A stretch of DNA of 64,000 nt, from positions 1-64,000 of the forward strand of contig JAZDQA010000004.1 of assembly GCA_043797085.1 (NCBI GenBank), in the 5' to 3' direction. Shown piece by piece: positions 3,701 through 19,481 of this stretch. A program made the translations under genes and the position numbers. The notes below the pieces were generated by a model. That model ran no database searches, had not been told where the DNA came from, and saw nothing but the letters and a program-made list of their open reading frames with translations. Within the stretch, counting starts at the first letter, position 1. Every line of letters starts with the position of its first letter. The DNA is from Pseudomonadota bacterium. GTDB lineage: Bacteria > Campylobacterota > Campylobacteria > Campylobacterales > Sulfurimonadaceae.

Positions 3701-5617
3701 ATTCTCATGGCATTTTTCAAAAAGCTTCTAAAAGAGGGATGGGAGAGATGCGTTAAATTTGTTAGTGACTATTTCTCGATGGAATATAACGCTTTTAAAA
3801 AGCTTTATAAGTTTGATGAGAAGATGATCAAGCTTCCTCTAACTGAAGAGCGCTATCGAGAAATTATTGCAAATCTCAATGAAGAACAATCCAAAGTTTT
3901 TGAAGATAAAACCAATCGAGCTGTGATGGTACTTGCAGGTCCAGGAAGTGGTAAAACAAAAACACTTGTTCATAAAATAGCTTCACTTATTACATTGGAG
4001 AATCATAAACCGGATCATTTCCTCATGCTCACCCACGGCAGGGCAGCAGCCAATGAGTTTCGTACACGGCTATACAATCTAATCGGCGGGTTGGCATATG
4101 AAGTAGATATTATGACTTTTCATTCGTATGCTTTGCAGCTGATAGGGAAAAAAATATCGGATGAAAATCAGCTCTCCAATGCTATTTCTCTTGCAACTGA
4201 GGGGATAGCACGAGGAGAAATTGAGATACCGTTTAAGACGATGTTGATTCTTGATGAGTATCAGGATGTGAGTTTAAAAACATACCGATTCATAACGATG
4301 ATCTTCAAAAAAATGGAAGCGAACAAACGGATTATTGCAGTAGGAGATGATGATCAGTGCATCAACAATTTCGATGGCGATGATTGTGCAGATGTGACCT
4401 TTATGAAAGCGTTCGAGACAGAATTTAATGATAGTGCATCAGTAGAAGAAGAGGATGAAACTTCCGGTAATTTTGCACGCTATTCTCTACTAAATAACTA
4501 CCGAAGCAAGCACAATATCGTAACCTTTGCCAACACATTTGCTCGAACCATTCCCAATCGTCTTAAGCAGGATGATTTAATCGCAAATGATACGGGAAAT
4601 GGATATATTCAGATCGTAAATTATTCTCAGAACACTTCTATGATTGCAAATATAGCCAAAGCTATAGAAAACGATCCCTCTGAAAATATCGCGGTACTAT
4701 GCCGAACAAACAATGCTGTTTTGACCCTTTATTCTATTCTCAAAGCCAAAGAGATCAATGTTAAATACATTACCTCTAAAGACGGTTTTAGATTGGGTCA
4801 GCTTGTGGAGTTACAGGATTTTTTAGAACAGTGGAAAAAGTCATCGTATGTTGAAGCGGAAGATTGGATAAAACTACGCTATTCATCATCAGCAAATTAT
4901 CCACTTGCGCAAAAAGTGATTGAGCGGTTCATTAATGAAAATAATACGGAAAGCTTGGTACCTGAGTATTTAGCAGCGGCATTTGAAGAGTATCTCTATG
5001 ATATTGAGTTTGACGAATTTGAGTTTACCAAGGCAAAAGTGATTGTTTCTACGATGCACAAAGCAAAAGGGAAAGAGTTTGATAGTGTCTATGTAATGGT
5101 TGAAAACAACTTCATTCAGGATGACTATCAGCGTAGACTTTTGTATGTTGCCATAACTCGCGCCAAAGAAAACCTCTACATTCACACACAAGATCGATGC
5201 TTCAAACCAATGGAGCCTTTAGCTAACGAAGTTGTATCGGTGACGCAAATGGATGCTGAACCAGATAGCATCATTTTTACGATGGGATTGGGAGATCTGG
5301 CTCTTGCCAGTGACGCTGCTGCAAAAGGGATCAAATTATCCAATCCACAAGCTGGGGAAATGGTACGAATAGAGAAAGTAATGAATGAAGATGGATCGAT
5401 TTGGTTCAAACTCTCAAAAGATAGCAGAACAATATGCGTTCTTTCTAAACCTGATGGTGGAAAAAATCGCTTGAGTGATAAAATCCTCCAAAAAGAGTTG
5501 GAGGGTTATAGTCTTAGCCCAGATGTGACAATCGAATACATTGTCCGATGGAAAGAGACAATGGGTGACGAACGATATGATCAGGTTTTATGCAAGGTGT
5601 CAATGCAAAAGTCGTGA
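722..5617 (+). CDS. Large RecQ-family helicase fusion: N-terminal DEDD-like exonuclease domain, SF2 RecQ core, C-terminal SF1 UvrD-like helicase
   Basis: IDLE..GHN..D exonuclease-like motifs; RecQ motifs PTGGGKT, SPLQALM, DEAHCFSSWGHDFR, TATA, AFGMGID, QESGRGGR; second Walker A AGPGSGKT, DEYQD, VGDDDQ, NYRS, TMHKAKGKEFD, YVAITRAK. Confidence 0.88.
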   Translation: MGSSDILFIDLEVGVHTYKIDLVGAWLNNITYNGKSVNYIRELYFQYKPPYICGHNFINHDKKFLLETSFNPIFDTAKIIDTFYVSMLVYPDKLSHKLSKPYKTDVHIQNDPFGDCVATKDLLELMIERFRTYGPSMQSLLSSLLRKNPYYEAFFEYLNVEPQYIDVYEFFSTKIKCSKQRFLELLDESPAEMGIILVYLMTKKRTSLSYAVLQTFPKTVQLLKDLLYNQESIDLIQFANDEFGLPGFREFEARDSGSDLFSHELENISQLHIIESALRGESLLAILPTGGGKTFAFQMPALIKAQAYKALTIVISPLQALMKNHVESFREKNQNFKVAAISGYLSPIERLNAIAEVENGIIDILYLAPEALRSHSIFNALKKRIIERFVIDEAHCFSSWGHDFRHDYKYIASFIRDLQTSSPFQGIIPVSCLTATAKPEVLDDIKRYFSDRLDLTLSEYLASAKRTNLHYNAIEVADDKDKYETLVKEINRIGKKAIIIYIPQNARMCKDLCDKLLQDTRIISMGLEIEPFYSKIDSEIDDGKRHGRNKSDILNDFIDDKIDIVIATTAFGMGIDKPNIEAVIHYETSDSLESYLQESGRGGRSDTIDAECIVLYANKDFDKLFNQQNRSKIEYAEINRILKEIKKEKRNPAILSTKQIAEKAGIDTEDSSKDYDVMIKTALLELEEAGIIKRGRNTTKIYATSVKKEENTSAMEYVHKVLDPDKEILELYDEMIRIMSVIIGRSKLDPIEVDDLSEHSGVKRSDVHKVLYALAEYELIAMENDISAHITKGVKKELEAHFAFENKLVEFFKSLPDYQREFHLRDVNDMLGEKTNHIRLSKKIIQSFTHLAALAKKKFKVKFKKDFCLILEKGDMTKIAELIAIRQKIARGIVDTLLEKHSGNNDEIEFSSTELKKTISEVSKMSIEGFHHTLVYMHDTLKEFKLRRGRLIYYQAFAIEKTGRMSEAKPYQKMRDYNNSLKLYYERKTEAIHILMAFFKKLLKEGWERCVKFVSDYFSMEYNAFKKLYKFDEKMIKLPLTEERYREIIANLNEEQSKVFEDKTNRAVMVLAGPGSGKTKTLVHKIASLITLENHKPDHFLMLTHGRAAANEFRTRLYNLIGGLAYEVDIMTFHSYALQLIGKKISDENQLSNAISLATEGIARGEIEIPFKTMLILDEYQDVSLKTYRFITMIFKKMEANKRIIAVGDDDQCINNFDGDDCADVTFMKAFETEFNDSASVEEEDETSGNFARYSLLNNYRSKHNIVTFANTFARTIPNRLKQDDLIANDTGNGYIQIVNYSQNTSMIANIAKAIENDPSENIAVLCRTNNAVLTLYSILKAKEINVKYITSKDGFRLGQLVELQDFLEQWKKSSYVEAEDWIKLRYSSSANYPLAQKVIERFINENNTESLVPEYLAAAFEEYLYDIEFDEFEFTKAKVIVSTMHKAKGKEFDSVYVMVENNFIQDDYQRRLLYVAITRAKENLYIHTQDRCFKPMEPLANEVVSVTQMDAEPDSIIFTMGLGDLALASDAAAKGIKLSNPQAGEMVRIEKVMNEDGSIWFKLSKDSRTICVLSKPDGGKNRLSDKILQKELEGYSLSPDVTIEYIVRWKETMGDERYDQVLCKVSMQKS

Positions 5618-5623
5618 TCTTCG

Positions 5624-7096
5624 TTACAGTGCCATCAACGTTTGATACTCTTTAAGCGCATAATCGTCAGTCATTCCGCTGATATAATCAAGCAGGAGTC
5701 GGCAGCGATAATACCACTCCAACATTAGTCTTTCCTTATCGGTATATTCTTCCTTGATGGCTTCGACACTGACAGAATAGGCAACAATGTGTTTTTGAGA
5801 TAAACGACGAAAAAACTTGGAAGCCAGCCCATAATCGATTTGCTCATCTTTGAGTAATTTAGCCATATCATCAAATGGAACTTCGAGAATCGGTTTATAG
5901 AGGTTGAGGAGTCCTGATAGTATCGTATGCCCTTTGAGCTCTAGTGTCTCGACTTCGCGGTTATGGTAGATATGTTTCGTTGAGATATTTTGGAGGATTT
6001 TGAGAGCAATAAAATATTTGCTTTTTTTGTCAAATTCGAGAAGAGGATAATTGAATGTCCCATTAAAAATCGCTTCGTGGTTATCGATATAAACCTTAGT
6101 GACTTGAGCAACCAATTTCCCGATTAAAGCAGCGCGGATGGAGACGAGGAACATATTGAAACGGTATGGCTTCTCTTCACTCTTTTGTGCTTTGTCGTAC
6201 GCTCCTTGTACTAAATCAACGAGATAGGTTTCCTCGGTTCCGTACTTTTCATTCACCTTTGGCGATTCCGCCATAATCAGAGCGTAGATTTTGTCTAACG
6301 TAAGGATCTTTTTATCGACGGCATCTTCGAGATCGGCGGTAAGGTACGAGATATCATCCGCTGCTTCCATGACATAAGTGATCGGAAAGCGTGTGCCTTT
6401 AGACATTTCAAGAGCTTGGCATACCGTCTCGACAAACTCTTTTTCGGAATAGTAGTATCCCGGTTTCTTTTGGAGATAGGAGAGAGTGTCTGATATGTCC
6501 GGTTTGCTCTCGAAAGCTCCACGTGTGTATTTGAGGATTGCCGCTGTCTGGGTGTAGGATAAGTTGAGGCGTTGAAGTTTATGCACGATACGGATCGCCT
6601 GCGCATTGCCGTCGAAATTACTCAGGTCTTTGATGAGCATATCTCGAAACGGATGTACTGCTTCAGACATATTGGGATAGAGGGCATTTAAAATTGTGGG
6701 AGCCTCTTTTGCCATCCATGCATTGATTGATTCTTCAGCTGAGTGACCAAAAGGAGGATTGCCAATATCGTGTAACAGACTTGCCATCTCGGCAGTGGAA
6801 ACGAAAGCATTGTCCATCTCTTCCAATCCAAATGTTTCAGTTAGGTCTTGTTTTTTGATTTCGGAAAGGATACTTTTAGCGATATACCGGCTCGTCTGCT
6901 GTACTTCGAGTGAATGTGTTAGACGGCTACGGACTGCTGCATTGAGTTCGAGGGCGAATACCTGTGTTCTTTTTTGGAGCCGACGCAGAGCTGGGGCGGA
7001 GATGATACGACCACGGTCGCTCTCAACCGAACCATCAATATTAGGAATCTCATTCATCGCTCTGTGAATCGTCAGCTTTTTACGATAATCAATCAT
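5624..7096 (-). CDS. dgt: dGTP triphosphohydrolase (HD family, Dgt type); candidate anti-phage dGTPase
   Basis: RRLQKRTQVF, RSRLTHSLEV, LLHDIGNPPFGH, FDGNAQ, EAADDISY, DYISGMTD. Confidence 0.92.
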   Translation of the reverse strand: MIDYRKKLTIHRAMNEIPNIDGSVESDRGRIISAPALRRLQKRTQVFALELNAAVRSRLTHSLEVQQTSRYIAKSILSEIKKQDLTETFGLEEMDNAFVSTAEMASLLHDIGNPPFGHSAEESINAWMAKEAPTILNALYPNMSEAVHPFRDMLIKDLSNFDGNAQAIRIVHKLQRLNLSYTQTAAILKYTRGAFESKPDISDTLSYLQKKPGYYYSEKEFVETVCQALEMSKGTRFPITYVMEAADDISYLTADLEDAVDKKILTLDKIYALIMAESPKVNEKYGTEETYLVDLVQGAYDKAQKSEEKPYRFNMFLVSIRAALIGKLVAQVTKVYIDNHEAIFNGTFNYPLLEFDKKSKYFIALKILQNISTKHIYHNREVETLELKGHTILSGLLNLYKPILEVPFDDMAKLLKDEQIDYGLASKFFRRLSQKHIVAYSVSVEAIKEEYTDKERLMLEWYYRCRLLLDYISGMTDDYALKEYQTLMAL

Positions 7097-8576
7097 TTAG
7101 TACCTTTCTGAGTTTTTGATGCACTCTGACCATCGCCAGTGTATCGAGTTTGCAGTATTCTAGGAGAGCATGGCGGATACGCTCTTGCTCTACCTCTTCC
7201 ATCGTTGCAAGCTTGGCGTAGGCGTTCATCGCTTCACCGCCGTTTTGGACTCCGTCGAGCTCTTTATAGGCTTGTGCCATCTCTGGGACGAGGGCAGGGA
7301 GGACGTATTTGATCGAATAGCTTCCGTTCATGGATGGGGTGACGTAATGCCCCTTTTGAAACGGCACCATCAGATCACGGATATTGGGGATGATGCTTTT
7401 GAGGCGTTCGCTGAGATCGGGGAAGCTAAGGGCTAGTTTTTCAATCACTCCTTTCTCGAAGCTCATGTTATACGCCAGTACCGTGACGTTGTCGGGGATA
7501 TCATTGATCAGCTGTTGCGCCAATGCGTAGCGCGGATCGGCTCCTGCGGGTGCCAGAAACTCCCGATGCTCCAGCTCCCCGTTCGCGTGCTCGATATGGA
7601 GCGAATACTGAAACGGTATTTGCTGATAGGGGCTGATCCCGTTCCATTGTGGAACCGCCTGTTGAAACGTCTCGAAATCGAGATGGTAGATCGGATAGGT
7701 GAGGGTGGAGAGAAACTCACGGATTGCGTCACTGTCGATGTAGGTACGCTGGCTTTTCCAGTTATCGACTTTTTGCTGTTGGATGGCGGTCATTTTGTAG
7801 CTATCGGGAATATCCTCGATACGAACGATCCCTTGATTGTACAGTTCGATCTGATTCTTGCTCCCGAGGTTAAAGATATTAAAGACGGAGTAATCGGGGA
7901 TGATTCGCTGTACTTTCCAGCAGTAGTGCATCGCGTCGCACTCATAGGGGTTTTTGCAGTGCTTGCCGATCTCAATGGCGGGTTCGTTCTCTCTATCTGC
8001 GAGATATGTTTCAAACTCGGCCAGTTTGGCAGGGACACCGCTCATCAGCGCATCTACTGCACCGCTCACATCGGCGACGGTAAAGAGGGCGCTTAGATCG
8101 AGTTCATCGCCCCGAACGTAGGAGGTGTCGATATGGACGACATAGCAGTTGGTGACGGTATGCCCGAGGCTCTCGATGACATAGCGCTGTATCGAGACAT
8201 CGCGCAGATAGATCTCCTTGACCTCCGAGGAGCTTTTAACCTCGTATATCTCTACACCATTGGGAGTAACGCGGAGGACATCGACCATCACGACGATCCC
8301 CTCATGGATAAACGTTGCTTCATAGATATACTCTAACCCCTCATCCATCCGCTCTCGTGTCAGCTCCGCCATCCCTGTGAAGTTTTTCTCCATATAGGGG
8401 ATTTCACGACCGTTTGGGAAGAGGGCGCATGCCAGATCGCCGACGATATTTCCTGTCTCGAATCGTGCGAGGGCGGTGGCATCGGGTGGAGTCAGCACCT
8501 CTGGGCTTTGTTTTTTCAGCCAGAGGGATTTCGGGCACTGGATTCCGCGGGTGTAGAGGGATTTGGAGAGAAGCAT
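7089..8576 (-). CDS. DUF2779-type protein: Cas4/AddB-like PD-(D/E)XK nuclease plus RNase H-like DEDDy domain
   Basis: LSKS..GIQCPK.LWL N-terminus; EATF..VDVL..YEVKSS; Cys cluster HCKNPYECDAMHYC; LDFETF, AYNMSFE, YCKLD. Confidence 0.8.
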   Translation of the reverse strand: MLLSKSLYTRGIQCPKSLWLKKQSPEVLTPPDATALARFETGNIVGDLACALFPNGREIPYMEKNFTGMAELTRERMDEGLEYIYEATFIHEGIVVMVDVLRVTPNGVEIYEVKSSSEVKEIYLRDVSIQRYVIESLGHTVTNCYVVHIDTSYVRGDELDLSALFTVADVSGAVDALMSGVPAKLAEFETYLADRENEPAIEIGKHCKNPYECDAMHYCWKVQRIIPDYSVFNIFNLGSKNQIELYNQGIVRIEDIPDSYKMTAIQQQKVDNWKSQRTYIDSDAIREFLSTLTYPIYHLDFETFQQAVPQWNGISPYQQIPFQYSLHIEHANGELEHREFLAPAGADPRYALAQQLINDIPDNVTVLAYNMSFEKGVIEKLALSFPDLSERLKSIIPNIRDLMVPFQKGHYVTPSMNGSYSIKYVLPALVPEMAQAYKELDGVQNGGEAMNAYAKLATMEEVEQERIRHALLEYCKLDTLAMVRVHQKLRKVLND

Positions 8577-8585
8577 AATAAAAAT

Positions 8586-10724
8586 TTATCCTATAATTTC
8601 ACATCTATTGAATGTATCAATAATAAAATTTTGATCATTTTCTGCATTTTCTAAAATAATCGAACAAAACGGTATATTATTATAGTAATCGATAAAATTA
8701 TAAAAACCTTCTAGTCTCTCAATAAAACCTTCAATAGTCATTTCAGCAATTACTATTTTTATATAACCTTCATTTTCATCAATATATATTTTTAACTTTT
8801 GATCAGGGTCTATTGTTTCAAAAATGGGTGTTGGTATATGGTTCATTAGTATATTTTCAATGTCGATAATATTTTGTGTTAAATTCAAAATCTCTATTAT
8901 TTGTGTTTTTGTATTCAAGTAGTCATTAAATTTTAAATATTTTTTCCCAATAATATAATTTTCTTCATTTGCACCAATAAACATATAGTCATTTCCAATA
9001 TTACTTTGAAGAATGAATTTTTTGTTATCTATAGATAATTCTAAGATATTACCTATAGCTTTAACCGTAAAAGAAATAGTTTTTTTATTTCCTATGTCAA
9101 TTATAATGACTTCATTGTTAATATGTTTTTGATATAGATTGTAAAACCAATTATTAAAATGAATTAATCCATCCTCATATTTTCCATTTTCAAAGAAGCA
9201 CATTGCTAAGCCATATAATGCAGTTGTATTGATTGGATTTAATTTTAATGCTTCTTTGAAAAGTTGTTTTGCTTTTGCATATTTACCTAAAAATCTTTCT
9301 ACTTCACCCTTCTGACTTAGTGCTTGTTCCATATTTTTATCTAGTGCGAGAGCTTTATCAAGATTTCTGAGTACATCATTATTTAAAGGATTTAAAATAT
9401 ATTGACAAATAGCTAAGTTTAAATAACTATTTTCAAAATGATCATTTTTTTCAATAGAGAGATTGAAATAATTTATTGCATTTTCTAAATCGTGTAAAAA
9501 CATATAGGACACAGCTATATTATAGAGAATCTTATCATCCAATTCGTGAGTATTTATTTTCATAAATACCGAAATAGCTTCCTCATATTTATGAAGTTTT
9601 CCTAAGCATATGCCATAGATCATTAAAAATTTTGTTGTATTGTTATATTTTTTACAAATTTCAATTGCTTCCTGATATTCATTCAATTGAACGTATATGG
9701 CAGAAATTTTATACTCTAAAGCTTCTGTTTGATCGTTTTGGTTTTCTACTTCTAAAATCTTTTTATATTTGATCAAGGCTTCTGGAAATTCTTGGTTTTG
9801 AATGCATTTTTCTGCTTCATAAATTTCAATAGTATGGTTCGGACATAGTTCTAAAATTTTATTTAACTCTATTAGCAGTTCTTTATTCGTATAAAAATCA
9901 AGTACTTTTTCTATATGGATTAATTTTAATAATCTATCTAAAACATTTCTATTTAATAATCTACTGGTCTTTTCTGAATTGCTGGATTTTTTTGATACAT
10001 CAAAATAAATAGAGCAAAAAAGTTGTTCCAGATTTGTTGTTCTGTCATATATTAATTTCTCCGATTTGAGTAATTCAGCTATTTCATGTTCAAGATTTTC
10101 AATATCTTCTTTTGGATCTGATACTTGTGAGATATCAAATCTTATTTTTTTCAAGAATTCTATAAAATCGTCTTTTTCTAGATCATCTTTGAAAGTAAAC
10201 AATTTACTTTTAATCTCTTTCGTTTTATGTTCTTTTGATTTTTTATCTTTTATGGTGTCAAGCCCCTTTTCTAATCGTTTTGTTGCATAAGTAATAAGAT
10301 TGTTTTTAATAATTAAAATGATATTGTCTGGAATTTCATATATACCCTTTTGACGGTTCTCATACCACTTTCTTAATTCCTTACCTGCTATTGGTTTAAA
10401 ATCAGAGTTTGTGATAAAATAAAATTCATCAACATCGTATTGGCGATTTAAGTTATAGAAATTTAATATAGATGAAATGAAATGTTCATCATTGATTCCA
10501 AGTTTGTCTGAATAGCTTTTTACTTGATGAAATGTATATTTTTGTGTATTTTGATCGTGTTCTCCAATGTCATCTTCCCATTCACAATAAATATCTATAT
10601 CATTGTCACAGATAAAATTATTTATCCATAGTTTCATCGTTTTTAAATACTGATAATGGAATCCTCGATTTGTAGCTATTGCATCTGTGTTTTCTTTGAA
10701 TATATGAAGTTCTTTATTTGACAT
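8586..10724 (-). CDS. Cap4/DUF4297-like dsDNA nuclease domain fused to TPR repeats
   Basis: N-terminal RGFHYQ..CEWEDDI..FHQVKS..FITN motif set; TPR-like repeats at about aa 300-530 (YNIAVSY..AINYFNLSIE, ALSQKGEV..AKQLFKEAL, ALYGLAMC); very AT-rich. Confidence 0.7.
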   Translation of the reverse strand: MSNKELHIFKENTDAIATNRGFHYQYLKTMKLWINNFICDNDIDIYCEWEDDIGEHDQNTQKYTFHQVKSYSDKLGINDEHFISSILNFYNLNRQYDVDEFYFITNSDFKPIAGKELRKWYENRQKGIYEIPDNIILIIKNNLITYATKRLEKGLDTIKDKKSKEHKTKEIKSKLFTFKDDLEKDDFIEFLKKIRFDISQVSDPKEDIENLEHEIAELLKSEKLIYDRTTNLEQLFCSIYFDVSKKSSNSEKTSRLLNRNVLDRLLKLIHIEKVLDFYTNKELLIELNKILELCPNHTIEIYEAEKCIQNQEFPEALIKYKKILEVENQNDQTEALEYKISAIYVQLNEYQEAIEICKKYNNTTKFLMIYGICLGKLHKYEEAISVFMKINTHELDDKILYNIAVSYMFLHDLENAINYFNLSIEKNDHFENSYLNLAICQYILNPLNNDVLRNLDKALALDKNMEQALSQKGEVERFLGKYAKAKQLFKEALKLNPINTTALYGLAMCFFENGKYEDGLIHFNNWFYNLYQKHINNEVIIIDIGNKKTISFTVKAIGNILELSIDNKKFILQSNIGNDYMFIGANEENYIIGKKYLKFNDYLNTKTQIIEILNLTQNIIDIENILMNHIPTPIFETIDPDQKLKIYIDENEGYIKIVIAEMTIEGFIERLEGFYNFIDYYNNIPFCSIILENAENDQNFIIDTFNRCEIIG

Positions 10725-10897
10725 AATTATTTCTCTTTAACGATATTTTTTGTTTCAGACCGTGCGAGTGCTGTCGCATCGGGAATAGGGATTTAGAGAA
10801 GGTTATATTATTCTCAATAGTTTAAATTTGCTTGAGGTTCTTTATGAGCTAATACGAGGCTCTAAAATAGAGTTCGCATTTAACGCTCTTAACTTCT

Positions 10898-11107
10898 CTA
10901 TACCTTTGAGTATCTATAAGTGCCTTTAATTGCAGATGCTAAATACCCACCAACTGAAGCTGCATGTTCTAATTCATTAAATATTCTCTCTGGAACATCA
11001 AAATATTGGTATGTTCCACCGTTTTTGAACTCAACTTGCAATGTTGAACTCTCTGCATCATAACCAATTGCTTGAATATTACTTGAATCTACATGTTTCA
11101 TTTCCAT
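10898..11107 (-). CDS. KTSC domain protein
   Basis: VDSSNIQAIGYD..LQVEFKNGGTYQYFDVP..AASVGGY..IK signature; AAGGA RBS. Confidence 0.92.
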   Translation of the reverse strand: MEMKHVDSSNIQAIGYDAESSTLQVEFKNGGTYQYFDVPERIFNELEHAASVGGYLASAIKGTYRYSKV

Positions 11108-11120
11108 TATTTGTTCCTTA

Positions 11121-12995
11121 TCATTTTATTTTATCTATCCTAGGGTTTTGAGCCCGCCATGTTTCAATTAATTCTTCATAATGGGGATTATCCTCCATTT
11201 TGATGCCCCAACCACCAGGATTTTGTGAATCTTCTAAAGATATTTCATCATAGATTATAGGGTCTTGACTATCTGGTCTTCTATTTTTTGGTGGTGCTTC
11301 TATTGTAGTTCTCATTGGCAATTTAACTGCTTCACCCAAAATAATGGCTTCCCCCGTTCTTAAAATAGGTAGCATACCAGTTAGTCCATCTAAATTATCA
11401 GATAATGCAGATGTTATGTGATTTCTATCTGAGGCATTAGTTAGCCTGAGTGCGAAAAAAGTACCGCATTGTGAAAGAATTGTTGAATTGATTTCTGAGG
11501 GTCGTTGACTTACAATCATGGCACCAATACCATACTTTCTTCCTTCTTTAACAATACGTTGAACGACTTTTGAAGCCATTCCTTTGAAGTCATCATTTAG
11601 ATAGATATGCGCTTCTTCCATAACTACTAACAATGGTCTATGTCTACCGCCTTGAGATAAATTTCTAGCCCAAAATAAAGCCTCATACAATAGTCTAAGA
11701 AGAGCGCCTATTGTTGTTTGTAAAATATCTGCAGGCACTCCAGATAAATCTAGTATTGTGACTGGTCTGTCACTACCAATCCAGTTTTTCAGTAAGCAAT
11801 CTAGATCTTCTGCGACTTTTCCATCAGCTTCTGGCATCCAAGTATCGGGTTTAAAAATGAAGTCATATCTAGGAATTCTGAGCTTTGTGCCCAATAACAA
11901 AACCTGTTTTCCTATATTTAAAGAACCTGGTAAATAATTTACTTTCACATCCCCAGTTGCAGTTGCAATATTTTTAAAAATAGGTGGTATACCTTTTAGT
12001 GCATCTCCTTTTAACTCTTTGCCACTCGCATCCGTTTCATAAGCTAAATTATCAATTGGTCTACCAGTTTTATTACCACTGTAATATGTTCCAAACACTT
12101 CAACATATAATTCATACCATAGATTATGAAGACTGAATGGGATGGGTGAATCTACACTTAGTATGTCTATAGATACACCTTTTTTTGGGTATTTTTCCAA
12201 TGATTCAATTTTATATTTATGAACTCTCTCCATCACTATATTTTTATCTTTTTCACTACTAAAATCACCAAAGCTAATTTCGCATAATTCATCAAAGTTT
12301 AATGCCCAAAAGGGAATATGCAATACTTTTTCTTTTAATTTTGAGCCTCTATCTCCATTTATCTTATATATATTTGCTTTTTCCTGTAAAGCCTGCCCAT
12401 ACTCACCATGAAGGTCTAACATGATAATTCTTGCAGACGGATATTTATCACTGTCAGATAAGGCGTTAATAATACTTGATACTGTCGTAGATTTACCAGA
12501 ACCTGTTGTGCCGACAACTGCTGAATGCCGAGTAATAAGTTTATTTACATCGACCAATGCAGGAATTGAGTCTGCATTTGAAATGTGACCTAATTTTACA
12601 AAATACGGCTTATCAGGTTGCCCATAAATATTTTTCAGTTCTTTTTCTGATACTAAATGCACTTCATCCCCAATAGTTGGGTATTGGGAAAGTCCTCTTT
12701 GAAAGACTCCATTTCTTGGACCTTCGCCTATTAATTGAATTGTCATCCATCTATTGCCATGAAGCTGACTTTCAGCTTGTTTTGTAGGCACAGCACTCGC
12801 TCCAACCTGACTTATAATTCCAAATAAATCATGAAAGCCTATAGGTATTCTAATAAAGCTGCCTATTTGACCAACTCTATATCCTTGTCCATCGATGTAT
12901 ACAAAACCTGTTAATGATTCTTTTGACAAGGAAATACTGACAGTAGTTCCATTAACATCTTGCACATCGCCAAGATAGGTTTCTTTGCTAGACAT
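11121..12995 (-). CDS. herA: HerA/DUF87 ATPase (HerA of a SIR2-HerA anti-phage system)
   Basis: N-terminal HAS-barrel-like region, HSAVVGTTGSGKS, LDLHGEY, MEEAH, RIVKEGRKYG, SQRPSE; overlaps the SIR2 gene by 8 bp. Confidence 0.92.
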   Translation of the reverse strand: MSSKETYLGDVQDVNGTTVSISLSKESLTGFVYIDGQGYRVGQIGSFIRIPIGFHDLFGIISQVGASAVPTKQAESQLHGNRWMTIQLIGEGPRNGVFQRGLSQYPTIGDEVHLVSEKELKNIYGQPDKPYFVKLGHISNADSIPALVDVNKLITRHSAVVGTTGSGKSTTVSSIINALSDSDKYPSARIIMLDLHGEYGQALQEKANIYKINGDRGSKLKEKVLHIPFWALNFDELCEISFGDFSSEKDKNIVMERVHKYKIESLEKYPKKGVSIDILSVDSPIPFSLHNLWYELYVEVFGTYYSGNKTGRPIDNLAYETDASGKELKGDALKGIPPIFKNIATATGDVKVNYLPGSLNIGKQVLLLGTKLRIPRYDFIFKPDTWMPEADGKVAEDLDCLLKNWIGSDRPVTILDLSGVPADILQTTIGALLRLLYEALFWARNLSQGGRHRPLLVVMEEAHIYLNDDFKGMASKVVQRIVKEGRKYGIGAMIVSQRPSEINSTILSQCGTFFALRLTNASDRNHITSALSDNLDGLTGMLPILRTGEAIILGEAVKLPMRTTIEAPPKNRRPDSQDPIIYDEISLEDSQNPGGWGIKMEDNPHYEELIETWRAQNPRIDKIK

Positions 12996-14304
12996 TCTGT
13001 CCTTCCTTAGGCGTTCCTATTATTTTTTTTAGAAAATTTGTAAATATAGAAAAGTCTCCAAGCTTGACTAAATTTTCATGCTCATCTGAACCATCATTTT
13101 TTTTAACATTAGCAATGAAATTCATAATATCGATATCTTCTTCGCTAGTATTTAGAGACTTTTTCCAGTCACCTAAATTTGTTCCGATTATGGCTTTGTC
13201 AAATGTCCAAATATTAAGATTATGCTGATTATTAGCCAAGCGATATGCCTCATGATAACGTTCTATGACTTTGCAAAACTCATTCAATTGGTATTGATAA
13301 TCCATTAGTGCTAAATTTATTTTAGTTGCTGACCATTTTAATTTTCCAAATTTCAAATGAATATTATTATTAGCAAACATTGTATATTTTTCAAACATTA
13401 ATCCAAGCACCATTGCCGTTGGATTTGCCTTTAGTGCATTTATGATTGTGTCATTTAAATGACCGTCATTAAATGAATAGCCAGATAAAATCAATAAAGA
13501 TGATTTTTTGCGAATAAATCTACTTAATTGATCAATTAATGCTAAATATGGCATTTTCCGACTTTCTTCATATTTCAAATGAGAAGGATAAATCAAATGA
13601 GATGCACCTTCCTTGATCTCTGAGGAACGATACACTTTTTTTTGACCTTCAACTTCTTCTTGATACCAATTAATAGAACCGTGTATTTTCCATAATCTTG
13701 ACCAATGGATAGGTATTAAATTGTCTTCAAGTGCTCTAAGATCAAAAAATGATCTTCTTGCTCCGACAAAACCATCGAAATATGCGACTTCCAAGTCTTC
13801 AAGTGCTTGTTCCATTAATAAATCGTAATTTGTTGTAAATAATTCGACGGAGACTTTTCTGTCTATTGACCTTATCCATTTACATAGACGGTGGTATGGT
13901 GTCTCTTGATCTGGTAGGCCTACGTCTAGTTTTTCTACAATTTTTGCAGAAATGATTTGTTCCAAACCTTTTAAGTCAGTTTCAGAAAGTCCTCTTACTT
14001 CACCGCCCTTAGAAACCAATAATAAGCTACGAAGAAAACTTAAAATGTCTTCTATATTTTCTATATTTTTTTCTGCCTTTTTCAATTCAGCTAACAGTAT
14101 TGTATATTTAGCATTATCTGTTAATTGCTCATTAATAAACTTTGTAAGACCTGCAACATCAGGTATTAATGGCCATTGACCTTCTGGCATATTTACTGAT
14201 AAAGGGCATCCTGCTGATATGAAAAATCCAATAGACTCATTATCTTGTGACAATGACTGGCGAAGATACTTTAAATGTCGAATAGGATCATGGTAATTAT
14301 TCAT
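12988..14304 (-). CDS. SIR2-family NADase (SIR2 of a SIR2-HerA system)
   Basis: FFISAG, TTNYDLLME, YFDGF, KIHGSINW, GYSFND.HLN motifs; CAGGAG RBS. Confidence 0.9.
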   Translation of the reverse strand: MNNYHDPIRHLKYLRQSLSQDNESIGFFISAGCPLSVNMPEGQWPLIPDVAGLTKFINEQLTDNAKYTILLAELKKAEKNIENIEDILSFLRSLLLVSKGGEVRGLSETDLKGLEQIISAKIVEKLDVGLPDQETPYHRLCKWIRSIDRKVSVELFTTNYDLLMEQALEDLEVAYFDGFVGARRSFFDLRALEDNLIPIHWSRLWKIHGSINWYQEEVEGQKKVYRSSEIKEGASHLIYPSHLKYEESRKMPYLALIDQLSRFIRKKSSLLILSGYSFNDGHLNDTIINALKANPTAMVLGLMFEKYTMFANNNIHLKFGKLKWSATKINLALMDYQYQLNEFCKVIERYHEAYRLANNQHNLNIWTFDKAIIGTNLGDWKKSLNTSEEDIDIMNFIANVKKNDGSDEHENLVKLGDFSIFTNFLKKIIGTPKEGQNV

Positions 14305-14344
14305 TTGATACTCCTGTATTTACTAAACATGGTGCACTGTCCAT

Positions 14345-16702
14345 TTACAACTCCACCACTCTCTCAAACATCTCCTTAATCTCAGTTTCATGAGAGATTA
14401 AAAATATCTGCCGATACGATTCGCTGATCGTGTGAAACGCTTCCATGATCTGGATGCGCCGTTCCTCGTCTTGTGAACCGAATACCTCGTCAAATGCCAA
14501 AAACCCAATATTGCCGCCACCGCTAAGTTCCCCAAGTGTTTTGGAGATGGCGATGCGCAGGACAAGGTTGGCGAGATCGATCTCTCCGCCGCTGAACCGC
14601 TCGATCGGGTAGCGCTCGCCGTTGTCGTAGATGTAGAAATCGAACTCGGGGCTAACTTCGATGTGCTGATAGCGTCCACGGGTGATGCGGCTGTACATGT
14701 CGCTGGCGACTTCGCCGATGCGGGGGGCGACGCGGGCGTTGATATGGGTTTTGAACTCGGACATGACTGCTTTGAGTTTCTCGTAGTCGGCTTGGTCATT
14801 TTCACGGGTTTTGAGAGATTCCCGCTGGGTTTCGTCGCGTTTGATCTCTTTGTCGATCGCTTCGATGTCGCGGCGGATGTTGGTCTGCTCTAGCACTGCG
14901 GCGTTCAGCTCGACCCCTTTGGCATCTTTAGTAGTTTCAGAAAGTTTCGCGTGGGTGATCGCTTCGTTATGGGTTTCTATACGGTAGGTGTCGGCGGCGA
15001 TAAGGGCTTGGGTAGCGGCGACAGAGGCTTCATCCGCTTTGATCTGCGTTTGGAGAGCTTGTAGGGCTTCGGTTTTAGACGGGATGGTGGAGATGAGCGC
15101 TTCGAGTTTGATGAGGGCTTCGACCTGCGGTTTGAGAGATTGATACTGCTCTTTGAGGGTGTTATGAGCGTTTTCATCGTAGGTGATGCTCCCAAGTTCT
15201 GCAAGGGCGACTTTGTTACTCATCCCCCGCGTTTCGACCTCACGGAATAACTCTTGGGCTTTGAGGAGGTCTTTGGATTTGCTCTGGAGGAGGGCGATCT
15301 GTGTTTGCAGGGCATTGCATTTGAGCTGTGCTTCGTCGGTGATCTTTTGGGAAGAAGCTTTTTGCTCGTTCAGGACGTTAAGGCGAAGTTGCAGGGCATT
15401 GATCTGCTTTTGGTAGACCTCATTGATCTCAGTGTGAAGCGATGCGATGACACTGTCATACTGCTCTATCAACGGACGGGTGCAGGTGGGGCAGGAGGAT
15501 TCCCGTCCCAGATCGGTGATCGTTTCGACCTGTTTGGTCACTTTCGCGATATTGGAGCGGTTGGAGCCGATCTCAGAGGTGAGGGCAGTGATCTCGGTGT
15601 CGAGTTTGAGGAAGGCCGCTTTAAGCTCTGAGAGGGCGGTTTGATCGCTATGGAGCTGTTTTTGCAGATCTTCCAGTGGAGTGATCTCATTAGTTAGCTG
15701 TGCCACTTCTTCTTTGCGTGTAGTGTACCCTTTTCGCAACTCCTCTTGCTCTTTTTCTAATCCGACTTTTTGGAGGAATTTGGTTTTTAGTTCGTCTTGG
15801 GCTTTAAGCGATAGCTCCAACGTGGCGAGTTGCGCTTTGAGAGGAAGTTGCGCCGTGTAATGGCTCTGGTGGGCGTTGAGGGTTTTGAGCTCGGTTTCGA
15901 GTTCGACAAGCTGTTTTTGGTGGAGGGCGAGCGTCTGTTGCGCTTTTTCGAGTGCATCGAGTTTCTTTTGCCGCTCTTCTTTGGCTTTTTGGTGGGTCTC
16001 TACGAGTGCTTTGGCGGCTTCGTAGGCGGTTTTTAGCTTTAGGGATTCCTCGGTGAGGGTTTTGAGGGTCGCTTCGAGGGTTTGGGAGAGGGCGGTTTTA
16101 GTGCTTAGGTCGTCGCGGTGCTGTTTGAGAACGTCATCACCGAGAAGAAACCCCGAAGCATTTTTGATATCACGGTTCAGCTCTCGCAGCTCCTCTCTGA
16201 TCATCTCCTCGATTTTATCAATCTTCTCCAACCCAAGCAATCGGCGCATCATCGCCTTGCGTTCGTCATTTTTCATCGAGCTGAGTGCCGTGAGTTCCTT
16301 TTGGGAGGCGAATACGGTGTGTAAAAACGCCTCTTTCCCCATGCCGAGTAGTTTCGTGATCGATAACGTTACCTCTTTAGCACCGGTGGCAATATTCTCA
16401 TCCCCCTCTTTGAGAGTTGCATAGGCGGTGAGGGCTTTCCCCCGGAACTCACGGATAGCGGTGTAACTTTTTCCTTCGATCTCAAAGTTCAGCTCAACTT
16501 TGACGCTTCCATCACTTCCGGCTGTAGGGATTAATTTTTTATCTGTTCGGTTTTCCCCGTATAGAGCAAAGAATACCCCGTCGAATATCGTCGATTTTCC
16601 CCGTCCATTGCGTCCGAGTATTCCGCACAGACCGCTTTCGAAAGTGATCTCATACGAGGCGTAGCGTTTGAAGTTCTGGAGTTTCAGCGATTCAAGCGTC
16701 AT
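14345..16702 (-). CDS. sbcC: SbcC/Rad50-like SMC ATPase
   Basis: GRNGRGKST Walker A, coiled coil with CPTC zinc hook, FSGGE signature, FDEVFGSQD, ISHE; start moved to ATG 16702 (MTLESLKLQNF), overlapping the sbcD stop. Confidence 0.88.
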   Translation of the reverse strand: MTLESLKLQNFKRYASYEITFESGLCGILGRNGRGKSTIFDGVFFALYGENRTDKKLIPTAGSDGSVKVELNFEIEGKSYTAIREFRGKALTAYATLKEGDENIATGAKEVTLSITKLLGMGKEAFLHTVFASQKELTALSSMKNDERKAMMRRLLGLEKIDKIEEMIREELRELNRDIKNASGFLLGDDVLKQHRDDLSTKTALSQTLEATLKTLTEESLKLKTAYEAAKALVETHQKAKEERQKKLDALEKAQQTLALHQKQLVELETELKTLNAHQSHYTAQLPLKAQLATLELSLKAQDELKTKFLQKVGLEKEQEELRKGYTTRKEEVAQLTNEITPLEDLQKQLHSDQTALSELKAAFLKLDTEITALTSEIGSNRSNIAKVTKQVETITDLGRESSCPTCTRPLIEQYDSVIASLHTEINEVYQKQINALQLRLNVLNEQKASSQKITDEAQLKCNALQTQIALLQSKSKDLLKAQELFREVETRGMSNKVALAELGSITYDENAHNTLKEQYQSLKPQVEALIKLEALISTIPSKTEALQALQTQIKADEASVAATQALIAADTYRIETHNEAITHAKLSETTKDAKGVELNAAVLEQTNIRRDIEAIDKEIKRDETQRESLKTRENDQADYEKLKAVMSEFKTHINARVAPRIGEVASDMYSRITRGRYQHIEVSPEFDFYIYDNGERYPIERFSGGEIDLANLVLRIAISKTLGELSGGGNIGFLAFDEVFGSQDEERRIQIMEAFHTISESYRQIFLISHETEIKEMFERVVEL

Positions 16703-17822
16703 TGTTGACCTCGTCATAGCGTGCAAAGAGTGTTGCTACTTTGGAGTTTAGACGTGTGAACTCTTCGGGTGTGGTGGTTTGCTCTTCTAAAAACGCGCCG
16801 AAATACTCCTGTAACGAGGCGGCATTCACACTCTCCGTCGCGGCAGAGGCTTCACTGCGTCGAAATTTGCGCTGGATTTGGACATTTAGGGCGGTAGGAA
16901 AACACCCTTCGATATCTCGGTTGGCAATGTCGATGGATTGGGTGGCACTGAGGTTTTCGAGGGTGATGGAGAGGAGAGCACCATCAACGACTAACGATTC
17001 AGCGTGTGATCGGAGTTCATCGAAAATATCCTCTGAGGTTTGGGCATCGACACGGAGACGGTGGCTGGGACGGAGGGTGATGGGGTGGAATATCACTTCA
17101 AAAGAATCCCCTAATGTTACGAGGACATATCCTTTGTCATTGCGTGCATCACCGCTGCTGGTTCGCTCTGTCGATCCGGCATAGTAGACGTTAGGGTGTT
17201 TGCCGACACTCCCAAACCCGTGCCAGTGACCGAGGGCAACGTAATCAATTTTCTCAAACAGCTCCTCTTTCTCACGCGGATAAACCCGCTCACCGTACTC
17301 CTCCATCATAAACTGCGCCCCGACGGAGCAGTGGAGCATCATGATGTTATGTTTATCCTCATCTACCGAAGCTTCACATTCCTCAATCGCCGCGAGGTTG
17401 GAGAGTTCATCGTTGATATGGGGGATACAGTGGAAATTGATATCATCAAATATTACTTTCTCGTACGCCTCTTCAAACACGGGATAGATATGATCGAGTG
17501 TCCGTAATGCCGCGAGGATCGGGGAAGCCGAACGGGTACGAGGAGTAGAGTGGTTTCCCGCGATGATAATCGTCGGGATCTGAGCGACACTGAGACGTTT
17601 GAGCTGAGTCAGACAAAAGCTGATAGCACGGTTGGATGGGTGAGGGCGGTGGAAGAGGTCTCCGGTATGGATAACGTAATCAGGTTTAGTCTCGATTATC
17701 GCATCGATCACCTGAGTAAAAGCATCGTAAAAATCGGCTTCACGTTGGTTGATGCCGAATTCATTGACGATCTCAAGATCGTTACAACCAAGATGCGTGT
17801 CAGAGAAGTGGAGAATTCTCAA
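16692..17822 (-). CDS. sbcD: SbcD/Mre11-like metallophosphoesterase nuclease
   Basis: HFSDTHLG, TGDLFH, AGNHS, YVALGHWH, YAGSTER; TTG start with AAGG RBS. Confidence 0.9.
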   Translation of the reverse strand: MRILHFSDTHLGCNDLEIVNEFGINQREADFYDAFTQVIDAIIETKPDYVIHTGDLFHRPHPSNRAISFCLTQLKRLSVAQIPTIIIAGNHSTPRTRSASPILAALRTLDHIYPVFEEAYEKVIFDDINFHCIPHINDELSNLAAIEECEASVDEDKHNIMMLHCSVGAQFMMEEYGERVYPREKEELFEKIDYVALGHWHGFGSVGKHPNVYYAGSTERTSSGDARNDKGYVLVTLGDSFEVIFHPITLRPSHRLRVDAQTSEDIFDELRSHAESLVVDGALLSITLENLSATQSIDIANRDIEGCFPTALNVQIQRKFRRSEASAATESVNAASLQEYFGAFLEEQTTTPEEFTRLNSKVATLFARYDEVNNDA

Positions 17823-17948
17823 TGAATACCTTTTAAATGAAAAATATTATTTTACATACAATAGTTGTTTTTTACTTAAAAGATGGAATTGGTAGTATAT
17901 ATTTGATTACAATAGATATTTTTATTTTCAAATCATCAAGGAATTCAT

Positions 17949-19115
17949 ATGTCAATTTTTATTAATCGTGAACAGTTGTATCATCAAGTATGGAAAATTC
18001 CTATGACAAAACTCGCACCTTTATATAATCTCTCCAATTATGAGCTCAAAAAGATATGTGATCGTTTTCTGATTCCAACGCCTAAAGCTGGATATTGGGC
18101 AAAACTCTCTTTTGGAAAACCTGAAGATATCGTACCTTTGCCCAAATGGAAAATTTGTGTGCCGCGTAGCATTCAAAGAAAACCAAAAACAGGAACAATA
18201 GCTCCGCATTCAAAAATAATTGATTCACCTATCTCGACACTAGAATCCGTTAAAATAATTGAACTCACTCCTAGAAAAGTGGATCATGGCATTGTGGTCA
18301 AAAAAACTCTTATACATATGCACTCATTAATTGAAAAAACACAACAAGCACTAAAAAAATCCAAAGCAGGTGAACATGGTAGATTATATCCCGGAAGTGA
18401 TGGAATAGCTATACATGTATCTCGTGAAAATGTAAAACGGTCATTATTGATTATGGATGCTATTTTTAAATGGTTTGAGAGTCGAGGGTATAAAATAATA
18501 AAACCTTTTAGTAACGATTCAAGAACATTTTTAAGTGTTGATGGTATTGATATTGAGATTGAATTATTTGAAAAGTCAAATGTAACTGGAAAGGTCAAAA
18601 GTAATTGGGGGTATGAGTACAATCAATATACACCATCTGGAAATATTACACTACAAATTAAATCATATACATATGGAACTAATATACGCACTCATTGGTC
18701 AGATGGTAAAAGACGAAAGGTAGAAGATTTATTAAACAGTTTTATTGATAGTTTTTTTGAGATCGTTGACTGGAATAAACGAGAAAATGAGCGAAGAGAA
18801 CGTGACCGTTTGGAACGAGAAGCTAGACGAATTGAACAAATTTATCAAGAACAGTGCCATCAATATGAAAATGAGATGTTTAATAATTTGATCCAAGAAT
18901 CTAATAATTTGGCTATGAGTACAAAAATAAAAGAATATGTATTTGCTGTAGAACAAAAGGCTAAATATAACTATCAAGAGAAAAATTATCCTAAAGACCT
19001 ATCTGATTGGTTTGAATGGGCGAAAAAACAAGCTAATAAGATTGATCCTTTAAAAGATAAATGGCCATCCTACATTGCATCTATTGAAATGATTGATAAA
19101 TCTAAAATACGATGA
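17949..19115 (+). CDS. Hypothetical protein with HTH-like N-terminus, typical of mobile regions
   Basis: 388-aa ORF with AAGGA RBS; REQLY..VW..PM..LA..Y.LS..L.K.C..IP.P..GYW N-terminal pattern; AT-rich. Confidence 0.7.
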   Translation: MSIFINREQLYHQVWKIPMTKLAPLYNLSNYELKKICDRFLIPTPKAGYWAKLSFGKPEDIVPLPKWKICVPRSIQRKPKTGTIAPHSKIIDSPISTLESVKIIELTPRKVDHGIVVKKTLIHMHSLIEKTQQALKKSKAGEHGRLYPGSDGIAIHVSRENVKRSLLIMDAIFKWFESRGYKIIKPFSNDSRTFLSVDGIDIEIELFEKSNVTGKVKSNWGYEYNQYTPSGNITLQIKSYTYGTNIRTHWSDGKRRKVEDLLNSFIDSFFEIVDWNKRENERRERDRLEREARRIEQIYQEQCHQYENEMFNNLIQESNNLAMSTKIKEYVFAVEQKAKYNYQEKNYPKDLSDWFEWAKKQANKIDPLKDKWPSYIASIEMIDKSKIR

Positions 19116-19211: not shown

Positions 19212-19288
<77 letters not shown>

Positions 19289-19300
19289 ACAAAAAAATAA

Positions 19301-19404: not shown

Positions 19405-19481
<77 letters not shown>

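Follow-up and report, generated by a model that had tools for sequence, protein, structure and literature searches.

The operon and its AT-rich slot

The stretch of DNA analysed here, hereafter the window, comprises the first 64,000 nucleotides (nt) of contig C4 in genome G000 (2.40 Mb, 95.9% complete, 40.8% GC); throughout, G numbers denote the genomes compared, L numbers the loci compared and C numbers contigs. Within the window lies an operon in which sbcD and sbcC, encoding a SbcCD-like nuclease pair, are followed by cargo genes, a gene for a DUF2779 protein and dgt. A first-pass annotation of the same DNA had described eight co-oriented genes with short gaps, and this is borne out: eight open reading frames (ORFs) on the minus strand span 5624-17822, joined from sbcD to dgt by a 35-nt overlap, a 40-nt gap, an 8-nt overlap, gaps of 13, 173 and 9 nt and a final 8-nt overlap. 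The left backbone consists of sbcD (16692-17822), for an Mre11-like phosphoesterase of 376 amino acids (aa), and sbcC (14345-16726), for a short Rad50-like ATPase. The right backbone consists of the DUF2779 gene (7089-8576; PF11074, 160.8 bits) and dgt (5624-7096), which overlaps it by 8 nt and encodes a dGTP triphosphohydrolase of the Dgt type. Between the sbcC stop codon, its left edge, and the DUF2779 start codon, its right edge, lies a slot for anti-phage cassettes that are interchangeable, AT-rich and co-oriented. Family names were assigned with Pfam, PADLOC and NCBIfam, and tRNAs with ARAGORN.

Backbone and cargo differ in composition. Against a background of 4775 windows of 1.5 kb across the whole genome (standard deviation 3.4%), sbcD (50.0% GC), sbcC (51.1%) and DUF2779 (51.8%) fall within the top 0.3%, 0.1% and 0.06%, respectively, in line with the earlier claim that these three genes are GC-richer than the host core. 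The GC content of dgt (43.3%) is ordinary for the genome. The 5.8 kb between SbcC and DUF2779 has 25-36% GC, with the gene for a Cap4-like nuclease with TPR repeats, hereafter Cap4-TPR, at 25.2% (bottom 0.02%) and the SIR2 gene at 31.8% (bottom 1.3%). The sharp switches that had been reported around this very AT-rich stretch are likewise found in sliding-window GC at ~8600, where it passes from 0.507 (8201-8600) to 0.225 (8601-9000), and at ~14400, where it passes from 0.335 (14001-14400) to 0.545 (14401-14800). Scans for promoter-like sites (72 against 57.7 expected) and terminator-like sites (10 against 15.1 expected) were uninformative.

The SbcC ORF has 793 codons from a TTG, while a start at ATG codon 4 or 9 would shorten the protein to 790 or 785 aa. 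The ABC ATPase head of the protein is split by a coiled coil and a CPTC motif lies mid-protein; it matches AAA_23 (36.6 bits), SMC_N over residues 11-791 and, just below the cut-off of 27, SbcC_Walker_B (26.0). Its best NCBIfam models are those of archaeal Rad50 (NF003034, 151.3 against a cut-off of 700), and against TIGR00618 it scores 89 where 478.5 would be required. SbcD matches Metallophos well (60.7 bits against a cut-off of 21.5), falls marginally short of TIGR00619 (77.3 against 77.65) and has archaeal Mre11 as its best NCBIfam model (NF041031, 117.7 against 500). Residues D8, H10, D55, N90, H91 and H199/H201 of SbcD are kept in 16 homologues, and we take these to be the Mre11-type phosphoesterase motifs. 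As no curated SbcC, SbcD, Rad50 or Mre11 cut-off is reached, the pair is best regarded as divergent and SbcCD-like, judged by its profiles, and not as an NCBIfam equivalog. Searches of the 95.9%-complete genome with SbcC and SbcD family models found no second SbcC or SbcD; this pair is the only SbcCD of the genome and the suggested check for a separate core copy returned none. Among 66 genomes of the window's genus, which form our genus comparison, the SbcD model matches 15, all of the window type but one (G014). With a single pair in the genome and SbcD in 15 of 66 relatives, SbcCD is accessory here, which agrees with its odd composition. The annotation had also taken the shortness of this SbcC, and its place on an island, as hints of a protein that senses DNA ends in defence and not in repair. 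At 785-793 aa it is indeed short, but length is not diagnostic, since long SbcC proteins (1027-1193 aa) occupy the same bracket at 13 other loci.

In an alignment of 17 DUF2779 homologues, D99, E112 and K114 are invariant together with C14, C207, C213 and C219, as are D300, E302, D401, Y474 and D478. We take D99...E112-x-K114 and the four cysteines to be PD-(D/E)XK-like, and the second set of residues to be DEDDy-like. Residues 293-495 of an AlphaFold model (mean pLDDT 77) align with the 3'-5' exonuclease domains of family-B polymerases (Z 14.6, root mean square deviation 3.2 A, 174 residues), and the C-terminal domain also aligns with the MrfB exonuclease (Z 13.1). On this model, the C-terminal domain is predicted to be a DEDD 3'-5' exonuclease. 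The N-terminal half is matched by Cas_Cas4 below threshold in 7/17 members (best E 0.0031), and a Foldseek search with the model places Cas4-Cas1 (7mi4) at rank 45 only; a DUF2779 profile run against PDB sequences returned nothing meaningful (best E 0.45). These matches weakly suggest a Cas4-like PD-(D/E)XK domain. The accessible parts of two papers already carry a Cas4-like N-terminal assignment for DUF2779 (PMC3985635, PMC13621843), in the latter based on HHpred for a DUF2779 homologue. The Dgt protein reaches the cut-off of NF003429 (556.7 against 405) and scores 207.9 bits with the PADLOC dGTPase model, but not that of the anti-phage dGTPase NF041026 (171.4 against 400). No further dgt was found in the genome.

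The cargo of the window begins with a SIR2 NADase-like protein (12988-14304; PADLOC SIR2 PDLC04093, 504.9 bits; Pfam SIR2_2), whose gene is overlapped by 8 nt by that of a HerA ATPase (11121-12995; PADLOC HerA PDLC04105, 548.8 bits; Pfam DUF87 and HerA_C) and followed by that of a KTSC-domain protein of 69 aa (10898-11107; Pfam KTSC, 85.2 bits). By profile match and gene overlap this first module is a predicted SIR2-HerA defence module, although SIR2 (59.6 against 500) and HerA (239.4 against 850) stay below the NCBIfam anti-phage equivalog cut-offs. SIR2-HerA-KTSC triads also occur in G025, G043, G024, G062 and L069, and KTSC thus appears to be a recurrent third gene of this SIR2-HerA subtype; a coupling of KTSC to HerA is mentioned in the accessible part of PMC9503650. 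The second module is the Cap4-TPR gene (8586-10724), coding for 712 aa with a sub-cut-off match to Cap4_nuclease (E 1.1e-4), TPR families and a weak match to PADLOC LmuA (PDLC03848, 39.1 bits). A search of 5.8 billion proteins gave only 3 full-length homologues of it, and among 401 genomes of the order it is present in the window's own and absent from the 400 others. Metagenomes scanned twice for relatives, first with the protein by itself and then with an alignment of four sequences, yielded no locus. We regard Cap4-TPR as a rare single-gene candidate effector-sensor. A Lamassu system made up of Cap4-TPR and SbcC was considered and rejected: the LmuA match is weak, no LmuB or LmuC is adjacent and SbcC, the sole SMC-like protein in the vicinity, is coupled to SbcD.

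Between the KTSC and Cap4-TPR genes lies a decayed copy of the 5' end of DUF2779 (10740-10812, minus strand). It retains remnants of DUF2779 codons ~2-8 and 30-45, with an internal deletion and a frameshift, and translates as PDATALARSETKNIV against PDATALARFETGNIV in DUF2779. A blastn comparison pairs 10783-10740 with the DUF2779 5' region, and a gapped local alignment reaches a score of 52, whereas shuffled sequences average 23 (standard deviation 3.7, maximum 46, n=500). Gapless repeat finding over 5500-19300 gave no repeat standing out as a bracket of modules, and the scar emerged only with gapped alignment. The position of this scar, together with the different GC of the modules on either side (0.32-0.36 against 0.25), suggests that the window's cargo is two modules of separate origin.

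Linkage of the flanks and variation of the cargo

Full-length SbcC is present in 12/66 genomes of the genus and a close full-length DUF2779 in 10/66. In 8 of the 12 genomes with full-length SbcC, it shares a contig with DUF2779 in the same order and orientation, separated by 0.87 kb (G034), 2.6 kb (G021), 3.2 kb (G076 and G084), 4.7 kb (G081), 4.8 kb (G007), 5.8 kb (the window) or 8.1 kb (G025). In the other four of the 12 the locus is cut or incomplete: the contig stops 28 codons into DUF2779 in G026 and inside the cargo in G063, the parts are divided over two contigs in G024, and in G011 the cargo is accompanied by no more than a weak fragment of DUF2779. In the genus loci every ORF between the flanks is co-oriented, and the set of cargo genes differs at each locus examined. 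SIR2-HerA-KTSC variants, 29-40% identical to those of the window, are found in G025, G043, contig C37 of G024 and G062 with FRG/PDC-S15, DUF2971/PDC-S31 or unknown partners. G081 has an MBL-fold gene and Hachiman HamA/HamB; G063 has, after sbcC on its cut contig, Gabija GajA/GajB and a PDC-S37/Hhe helicase-nuclease. Ppl-like genes occupy the slot in G076, G007 and G015, an AriA/Old-like ATPase and an unknown gene that in G084, and Tmn that in G002. Contig C47 of G024 carries two PDC-S05 genes, a PDC-S22 gene and Borvo BovA, and G011 a PDC-S23 (RhuM-Fic) gene and an SMC-like gene.

Two further features of the genus cargo were observed. In G021 (L029:13477-15584, minus strand) and G062 (L039:12418-14507, plus strand) a recurrent cassette lies directly upstream of DUF2779 and has no Pfam or PADLOC match; it encodes a 115-aa protein with a hydrophobic tail and a ~585-aa protein, 69% and 73% identical between the two genomes. 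This two-gene cassette is a candidate defence module. In G034 (L027:13585-15891, minus strand) the DUF2779 frame is open for 768 codons and begins with a DUF676/PGAP1-like serine-esterase domain, which represents either an in-frame fusion or a very tight gene pair; over its initial 600 bp, the DUF2779 part has no more than 53-61% identity to that of the window.

The backbone itself is decayed or interrupted at several genus loci. On contig C37 of G024, codon ~29 of sbcD is joined to the final 25 codons of sbcC. An rmuC gene (626 aa) directly precedes a 3' fragment of sbcC in both G062 (L039:6856-9041) and G015 (L032:6511-8540). In G062 it lies between this fragment and a 5' fragment of sbcD, so that one DNA-recombination nuclease appears to have displaced another, and in G015 no sbcD fragment was found. 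The sbcC gene of G033 (L031:13365-17406) is truncated after 291 codons, and its neighbours are a tyrosine integrase gene and a gene resembling phage CI repressors, which hints that a mobile element disrupted it; another contig of this genome (L043) bears the C-terminal portion of a DUF2779 gene, a helicase homologue and dgt.

For a wider comparison the DUF2779 protein was used to scan species-representative genomes. The 80 loci obtained belong to Sulfurimonadaceae, Sulfurospirillum, Sulfurovum, Arcobacter and relatives of it, and Campylobacter, with a single one from Marithrix. These are the closest relatives of the query, 8 of them in the same genus, and the fractions below describe this sample and not the whole order. 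When the order was sampled evenly, 97/401 genomes had DUF2779. Upstream genes were surveyed where a locus had 8 kb or more of sequence on that side, as 55 of the 80 did. SbcC of the window class lies upstream in 24 of these, co-oriented, at 42-92% identity and 0.4-9.6 kb away; a second class is present in 9, remnants of sbcC alone in 3, and none of these in 19. This second class, with a SbcD of 393-403 aa and a canonical long SbcC of 1027-1193 aa, was found at 13 loci overall. An upstream SbcCD pair with order and orientation kept is therefore present in 33/55 loci, and a pair or remnant in 36/55. Together with the 8 of 12 genomes of the genus, this answers the question of whether the flanks are linked elsewhere, as the first-pass annotation had supposed. 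In Campylobacterales, sbcD-sbcC, DUF2779 and usually dgt thus make up a conserved unit.

The slot is empty at L105 and L064, where the long SbcC directly abuts DUF2779, and near-empty at L117 (416 bp with a 90-aa ORF6N fragment) and in G034 (0.87 kb). Elsewhere in the order, the cargo recognised by PADLOC includes Gabija, Hachiman, Lamassu, SIR2-HerA, Ppl, Mokosh, DRT UG6, PDC-S06/S46/S53, Old and dCTPase, alongside genes with no match. In 18 loci outside the genus, 54/62 cargo ORFs are co-oriented with the backbone, and the cargo ends within a few nt of the DUF2779 start. The expectation that the cargo varies therefore held: every locus examined has a different gene set, largely of recognised defence systems, in gaps of 0.4-9.6 kb. 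Small genes of the Bro-N/RhuM, ORF6N, KilA-N and RhuM-Fic kinds (PADLOC PDC-S05/S22/S23) are the commonest first cassette after the sbcC stop, for example at L024:4114-7017, L025:4010-4936, L028:10619-11623, L097, L088 and L117, with both SbcCD classes and in several genera. In 26 loci, cargo GC is 0.22-0.39 whatever the host, flank GC (0.27-0.59) follows the host, and in most cases the flank genes exceed the more distant downstream DNA by a few GC points. One idea for this pattern is that recombination is concentrated here and brings GC-biased gene conversion with it.

The retention of DUF2779 beside SbcCD pairs of two different classes speaks for a functional link. Downstream, dgt follows DUF2779 in 23/80 loci, in 15 of these within 10 nt. 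Two allele classes of dgt, with ~58% and 86-92% protein identity to that of the window, stand behind DUF2779 genes that are 74-90% identical, and the switch falls at the gene boundary. In the window a gene convergent on dgt (722-5617, plus strand) encodes a fused RecQ-like and UvrD-like helicase of 1631 aa (Pfam DEAD/Helicase_C and UvrD domains) with PADLOC matches to DpdF/PsyrT and to GajB-like proteins. Homologues of it lie directly downstream of DUF2779 in L081, L100 and L118 and, within the genus, in L043, and the helicase may be an optional fourth backbone gene.

Scars, mosaic flanks and a probable surrounding island

Partial copies of the flank genes are found within the cargo. Eight loci hold 12 partial copies of the sbcC 3' end, located between or after cassettes, of 31-132 bp and 85-95% identical to that of the window. 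Their left ends vary (query positions 225-326), whereas all right ends come to within ~10 nt of where sbcC stops, past which the homology is lost. Partial copies of the DUF2779 5' end mark the right edges of cassettes in the genus and in L080, L083, L085, L099, L116 and L121, and L032 and L033 contain cassettes with both scars away from any backbone. Units of a cassette and its scar are shared between species. A RhuM-Fic cassette with its scar is 87.7% identical over 1225 bp between two genomes, and an ORF6N cassette with its scar 86.6% identical over 1009 bp between species and 66-69% identical to loci of the Arcobacter group. Moreover, the flanks themselves are mosaic. Divergent alleles of sbcC share 55-70% of their DNA sequence in the coiled coil but 87-94% of it over the final ~480 bp, and in G021 identity at four-fold degenerate sites rises from 74/184 (codons 1-620) to 42/58 (codons 621-793), with a like rise in G011 and G084. 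Taken together, the truncated copies and mosaic flanks point to homology-anchored recombination, as had been proposed from the window alone.

In such a scheme homologous recombination, crossing over within the conserved flanks, would pass cassettes from one strain or species to another. Arrays would grow by homology-facilitated illegitimate recombination, with one end anchored in sbcC or DUF2779 and the other joined illegitimately, and the illegitimate joining would leave a truncated flank-gene copy behind. A fixed end at a gene boundary, a variable inner end and growing arrays are what this mechanism predicts, and in the accessible part of PMC5361080 the same mechanism is proposed for type VI secretion system (T6SS) effector-immunity arrays of Vibrio cholerae and for Rhs loci. 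As the intact sbcC 3' end and a scar form direct repeats around a cassette, a cassette bracketed by two sbcC 3' copies could loop out or re-enter through a single homologous crossover of the RecA type.

The whole unit would in turn ride on a tRNA-linked integrative island. A cluster of tRNA genes (19212-19565) lies between orf388 and ribBA and consists of a tRNA-Met (19212-19288, minus strand), whose 3' end faces the unit, a second tRNA-Met (19405-19481) and a tRNA-Gln (19491-19565). The same RibBA-tRNA-Gln-tRNA-Met-tRNA-Met context stands beside sbcD in G084. A 49-bp copy of the tRNA-Met 3' half, 98% identical, is present at G000:C3:16251-16299 and is oriented as the far end of the island should be, C3 and C4 not being joined in the assembly. 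Adjoining this partial copy is a tyrosine integrase ORF (Phage_integrase, C3:14840-16168), and inward from it follow an AAA_25 helicase-like gene and a type I restriction-modification (R-M) operon; no integrase was found in window positions 1-19211. On these grounds the tRNA-Met at 19212-19288 is the probable integration site and right boundary, and the unit probably lies on an integrase-bearing island of at least 35 kb. In G062, dgt, an integrase and tRNA-Leu follow one another at the end of the unit, so that the unit would seem to have travelled on more than one integrative element. The description of SbcC as island-borne is thus supported by the absence of a second sbcCD, by SbcD in 15/66 genomes of the genus and by the unit abutting tRNA-Met.

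Several features of this surrounding DNA were also observed. The R-M operon within C3:1-16299 (L131) comprises hsdM, hsdS and hsdR, with a Schlafen/AlbA_2-HATPase_c_4 gene and an unknown 320-aa gene between hsdS and hsdR. Divergent from sbcD, orf388 (17949-19115, plus strand, 32% GC) has no Pfam, NCBIfam or PADLOC match and retrieves only 'hypothetical protein' clusters from the Atlas; a homologue 62% identical to it lies beside sbcD in G081, and orf388 probably belongs to the island. Window positions 1-519 are 89% identical to the reverse complement of the 3' end of C9, and the 5' end of C3 is a 140-bp repeat that recurs at or near the ends of C2, C5 and C11. These repeats at contig ends would account for the assembly breaks around the island.

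A defence hotspot and its rival explanations

Linkage of the flanks, variation and defence content of the cargo, scars and mosaic flanks are all direct observations. We therefore read the locus, with a probability of roughly 80%, as a defence-gene hotspot embedded in an accessory, horizontally mobile sbcD-sbcC...DUF2779(-dgt) operon, whose cargo is swapped through recombination in the flanks. The backbone proteins would act as a DNA-end and hairpin processing set with a role, in repair or in defence, independent of the cargo. The first-pass annotation had left the choice between a candidate defence hotspot and a new system; the hotspot stands, given variable defence cargo between linked flanks, and the new defence system does not.

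A number of points weigh against this reading. The sample of 80 loci is neither unbiased nor independent, 19/55 DUF2779 loci lack SbcCD over a distance of 10 kb, and distant paralogues of DUF2779 are found in other settings, such as that of L049 beside ribosomal protein genes. The last 93 codons of SbcC show 97-100% protein identity in all alleles, so that part of the 3' conservation is attributable to purifying selection. In G034 the rise at four-fold degenerate sites is weak (102/192 to 40/61), and G043, from another family, shows no synonymous rise at the sbcC 3' end (11/34 against 17/60 and 19/72). We infer exchange from a species-level comparison of genomes, many of them fragmented metagenome bins, and no exchange event was directly observed. 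As to the island, the link between C3 and C4 is not assembled: no overlap was found between these contigs, both of which end in repeats. Five genomes without the island each have different DNA beyond tRNA-Met, with no conserved synteny, and orf177 and orf271 of C3 were not found there.

The regular bracket might instead mean that SbcCD, DUF2779 (with dgt or helicase) and the cassette form one defence machine whose parts need co-expression, with cassettes that sense or guard SbcCD activity, for example, or that pass DNA ends to the backbone nucleases. Such a composite would suit a bracket kept across families and with two non-orthologous SbcCD classes, cargo that is nearly always co-oriented (54/62 ORFs in the 18 non-genus loci, all in genus loci) and packed within a few nt of the sbcC stop and DUF2779 start, and the prevalence in it of ATPase-nuclease or helicase-nuclease systems (Gabija, Lamassu, Ppl, Old, Hachiman, SIR2-HerA). 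It is at odds with the existence of empty or near-empty slots (L105 and L064, where the flanks are adjacent; L117, 416 bp; G034, 0.87 kb), with cargo that persists where sbcDC is deleted (G024 C37) or rmuC is in its place (G062, G015), and with double-scar cassettes away from any backbone (L032, L033). Moreover, Gabija, Hachiman and SIR2-HerA are reported to be autonomous in heterologous hosts, which also counts against it, and we consider a single composite machine unlikely. Somewhat related is the proposal that sbcDC-DUF2779(-dgt/helicase) is both a recombinase-free platform for gene capture, with the sbcC 3' and DUF2779 5' ends as portable homology handles, and a functional chassis whose nucleases cooperate with, or are guarded by, the cargo. 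If this were true, scar-bearing cassettes captured or lost by RecA-type crossover would amount to an integron analogue running on host recombination, the co-orientation and tight packing of DNA-end-sensing ATPase-nuclease systems at this place would be explained, and DUF2779 would be a dedicated third subunit or partner of SbcCD. We regard this bolder proposal as doubtful.

The precision of the left junction, which at every locus falls at the sbcC stop codon, could also suggest that the last ~30 bp of sbcC including the stop are the attachment site of an integron-like or Xer-like recombinase and that cassettes enter singly. Three minimal copies (31-35 bp; L024, L029 and L033) do share a left end at query positions 324-326, and cassettes stand head to tail with a copy after each in L024, L034 and L033. 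However, the left ends of the other partial copies vary (query positions 225-277), and the common left end of the short copies is explicable by descent of one KilA-N/ORF6N cassette. The right edges are DUF2779 5' fragments of variable length with no second site, and no repeat in the window stands out as bracketing modules. As the window and most loci are free of recombinase genes both within the slot and next to it, and nothing is conserved beyond the sbcC stop, we rate a site-specific mechanism as very unlikely. Lastly, the locus could be one more mosaic tRNA-linked defence island in which the adjacency of sbcDC and DUF2779 is meaningless hitch-hiking. The unit abuts tRNA-Met, its probable far end carries an integrase and type I R-M, the unit has additional defence genes beside it elsewhere (type I R-M in G081 and G076; NERD and NOV_C genes in G025) and the context outside the unit varies. 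Against this, order and orientation are kept in 33/55 loci from several families while the intervening sequence varies, one locus after another has its insertion points exactly where sbcC stops and DUF2779 starts, and the scars copy sbcC and DUF2779 specifically. Mere hitch-hiking is therefore scarcely credible.

A hotspot with exchange through its flanks, as we prefer to read the locus, provides a precise, order-wide place to mine for new anti-phage systems of Campylobacterales, and two anchor genes suffice to recognise the slot. Cargo without a family includes Cap4-TPR, the pair of 115-aa and ~585-aa proteins (G021 and G062) and genes in L103, L114 and L096. Moreover, it offers a functional lead for the widespread, uncharacterised DUF2779 protein, a putative double nuclease, which is kept beside two SbcCD classes and often beside dgt, and the flank-gene scars are a readable record of defence cassettes swapped without a dedicated recombinase. 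A literature search found no account of a hotspot flanked by sbcC and DUF2779; supplements lay outside this search, which is no proof of absence.

The components and the hotspot can each be compared with known systems. Like E. coli SbcCD and archaeal Mre11-Rad50, the pair in the window consists of a phosphoesterase overlapping translationally with a coiled-coil ABC-type ATPase that has a CxxC zinc hook. Unlike these, its SbcC is short (785-793 aa) and scores far below the SbcC and Rad50 cut-offs, its SbcD narrowly misses its own, and the pair is accessory and trailed by the conserved putative double nuclease DUF2779 and by dgt. The first cargo module resembles the SIR2-HerA anti-phage system, as presented in the accessible part of PMC11472057, in its overlapping SIR2 and HerA genes and strong PADLOC matches, whereas the window subtype adds a KTSC gene and misses the NCBIfam equivalog cut-offs.

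In its mode of growth the slot recalls the displacement of Rhs and contact-dependent inhibition (CDI) C-termini and the Vibrio cholerae T6SS effector-immunity arrays, for which the accessible part of PMC5361080 describes modules that enter beside a conserved upstream gene, displaced 3' pieces that persist as 'orphans' and arrays that grow, and proposes homologous recombination combined with homology-facilitated illegitimate recombination. Here, however, the anchors are DNA-repair-type nucleases, the cargo consists of whole anti-phage systems and not of toxin tips or immunity genes, and scars are left on both sides (sbcC 3' and DUF2779 5'). Chromosomal defence hotspots such as the islands of the E. 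coli pan-genome, as far as the accessible part of PMC10121019 describes them, likewise combine conserved flanks with variable AT-rich anti-phage cargo and occasional empty sites. In contrast to those, the flanks of the present hotspot are an accessory GC-rich nuclease operon (12/66 genomes of the genus) and not core housekeeping genes, and the slot lies inside the operon, exactly from stop to start, with co-oriented cargo. Moreover, its bracket spans an order and two SbcCD classes, and the unit probably sits on tRNA-linked islands.

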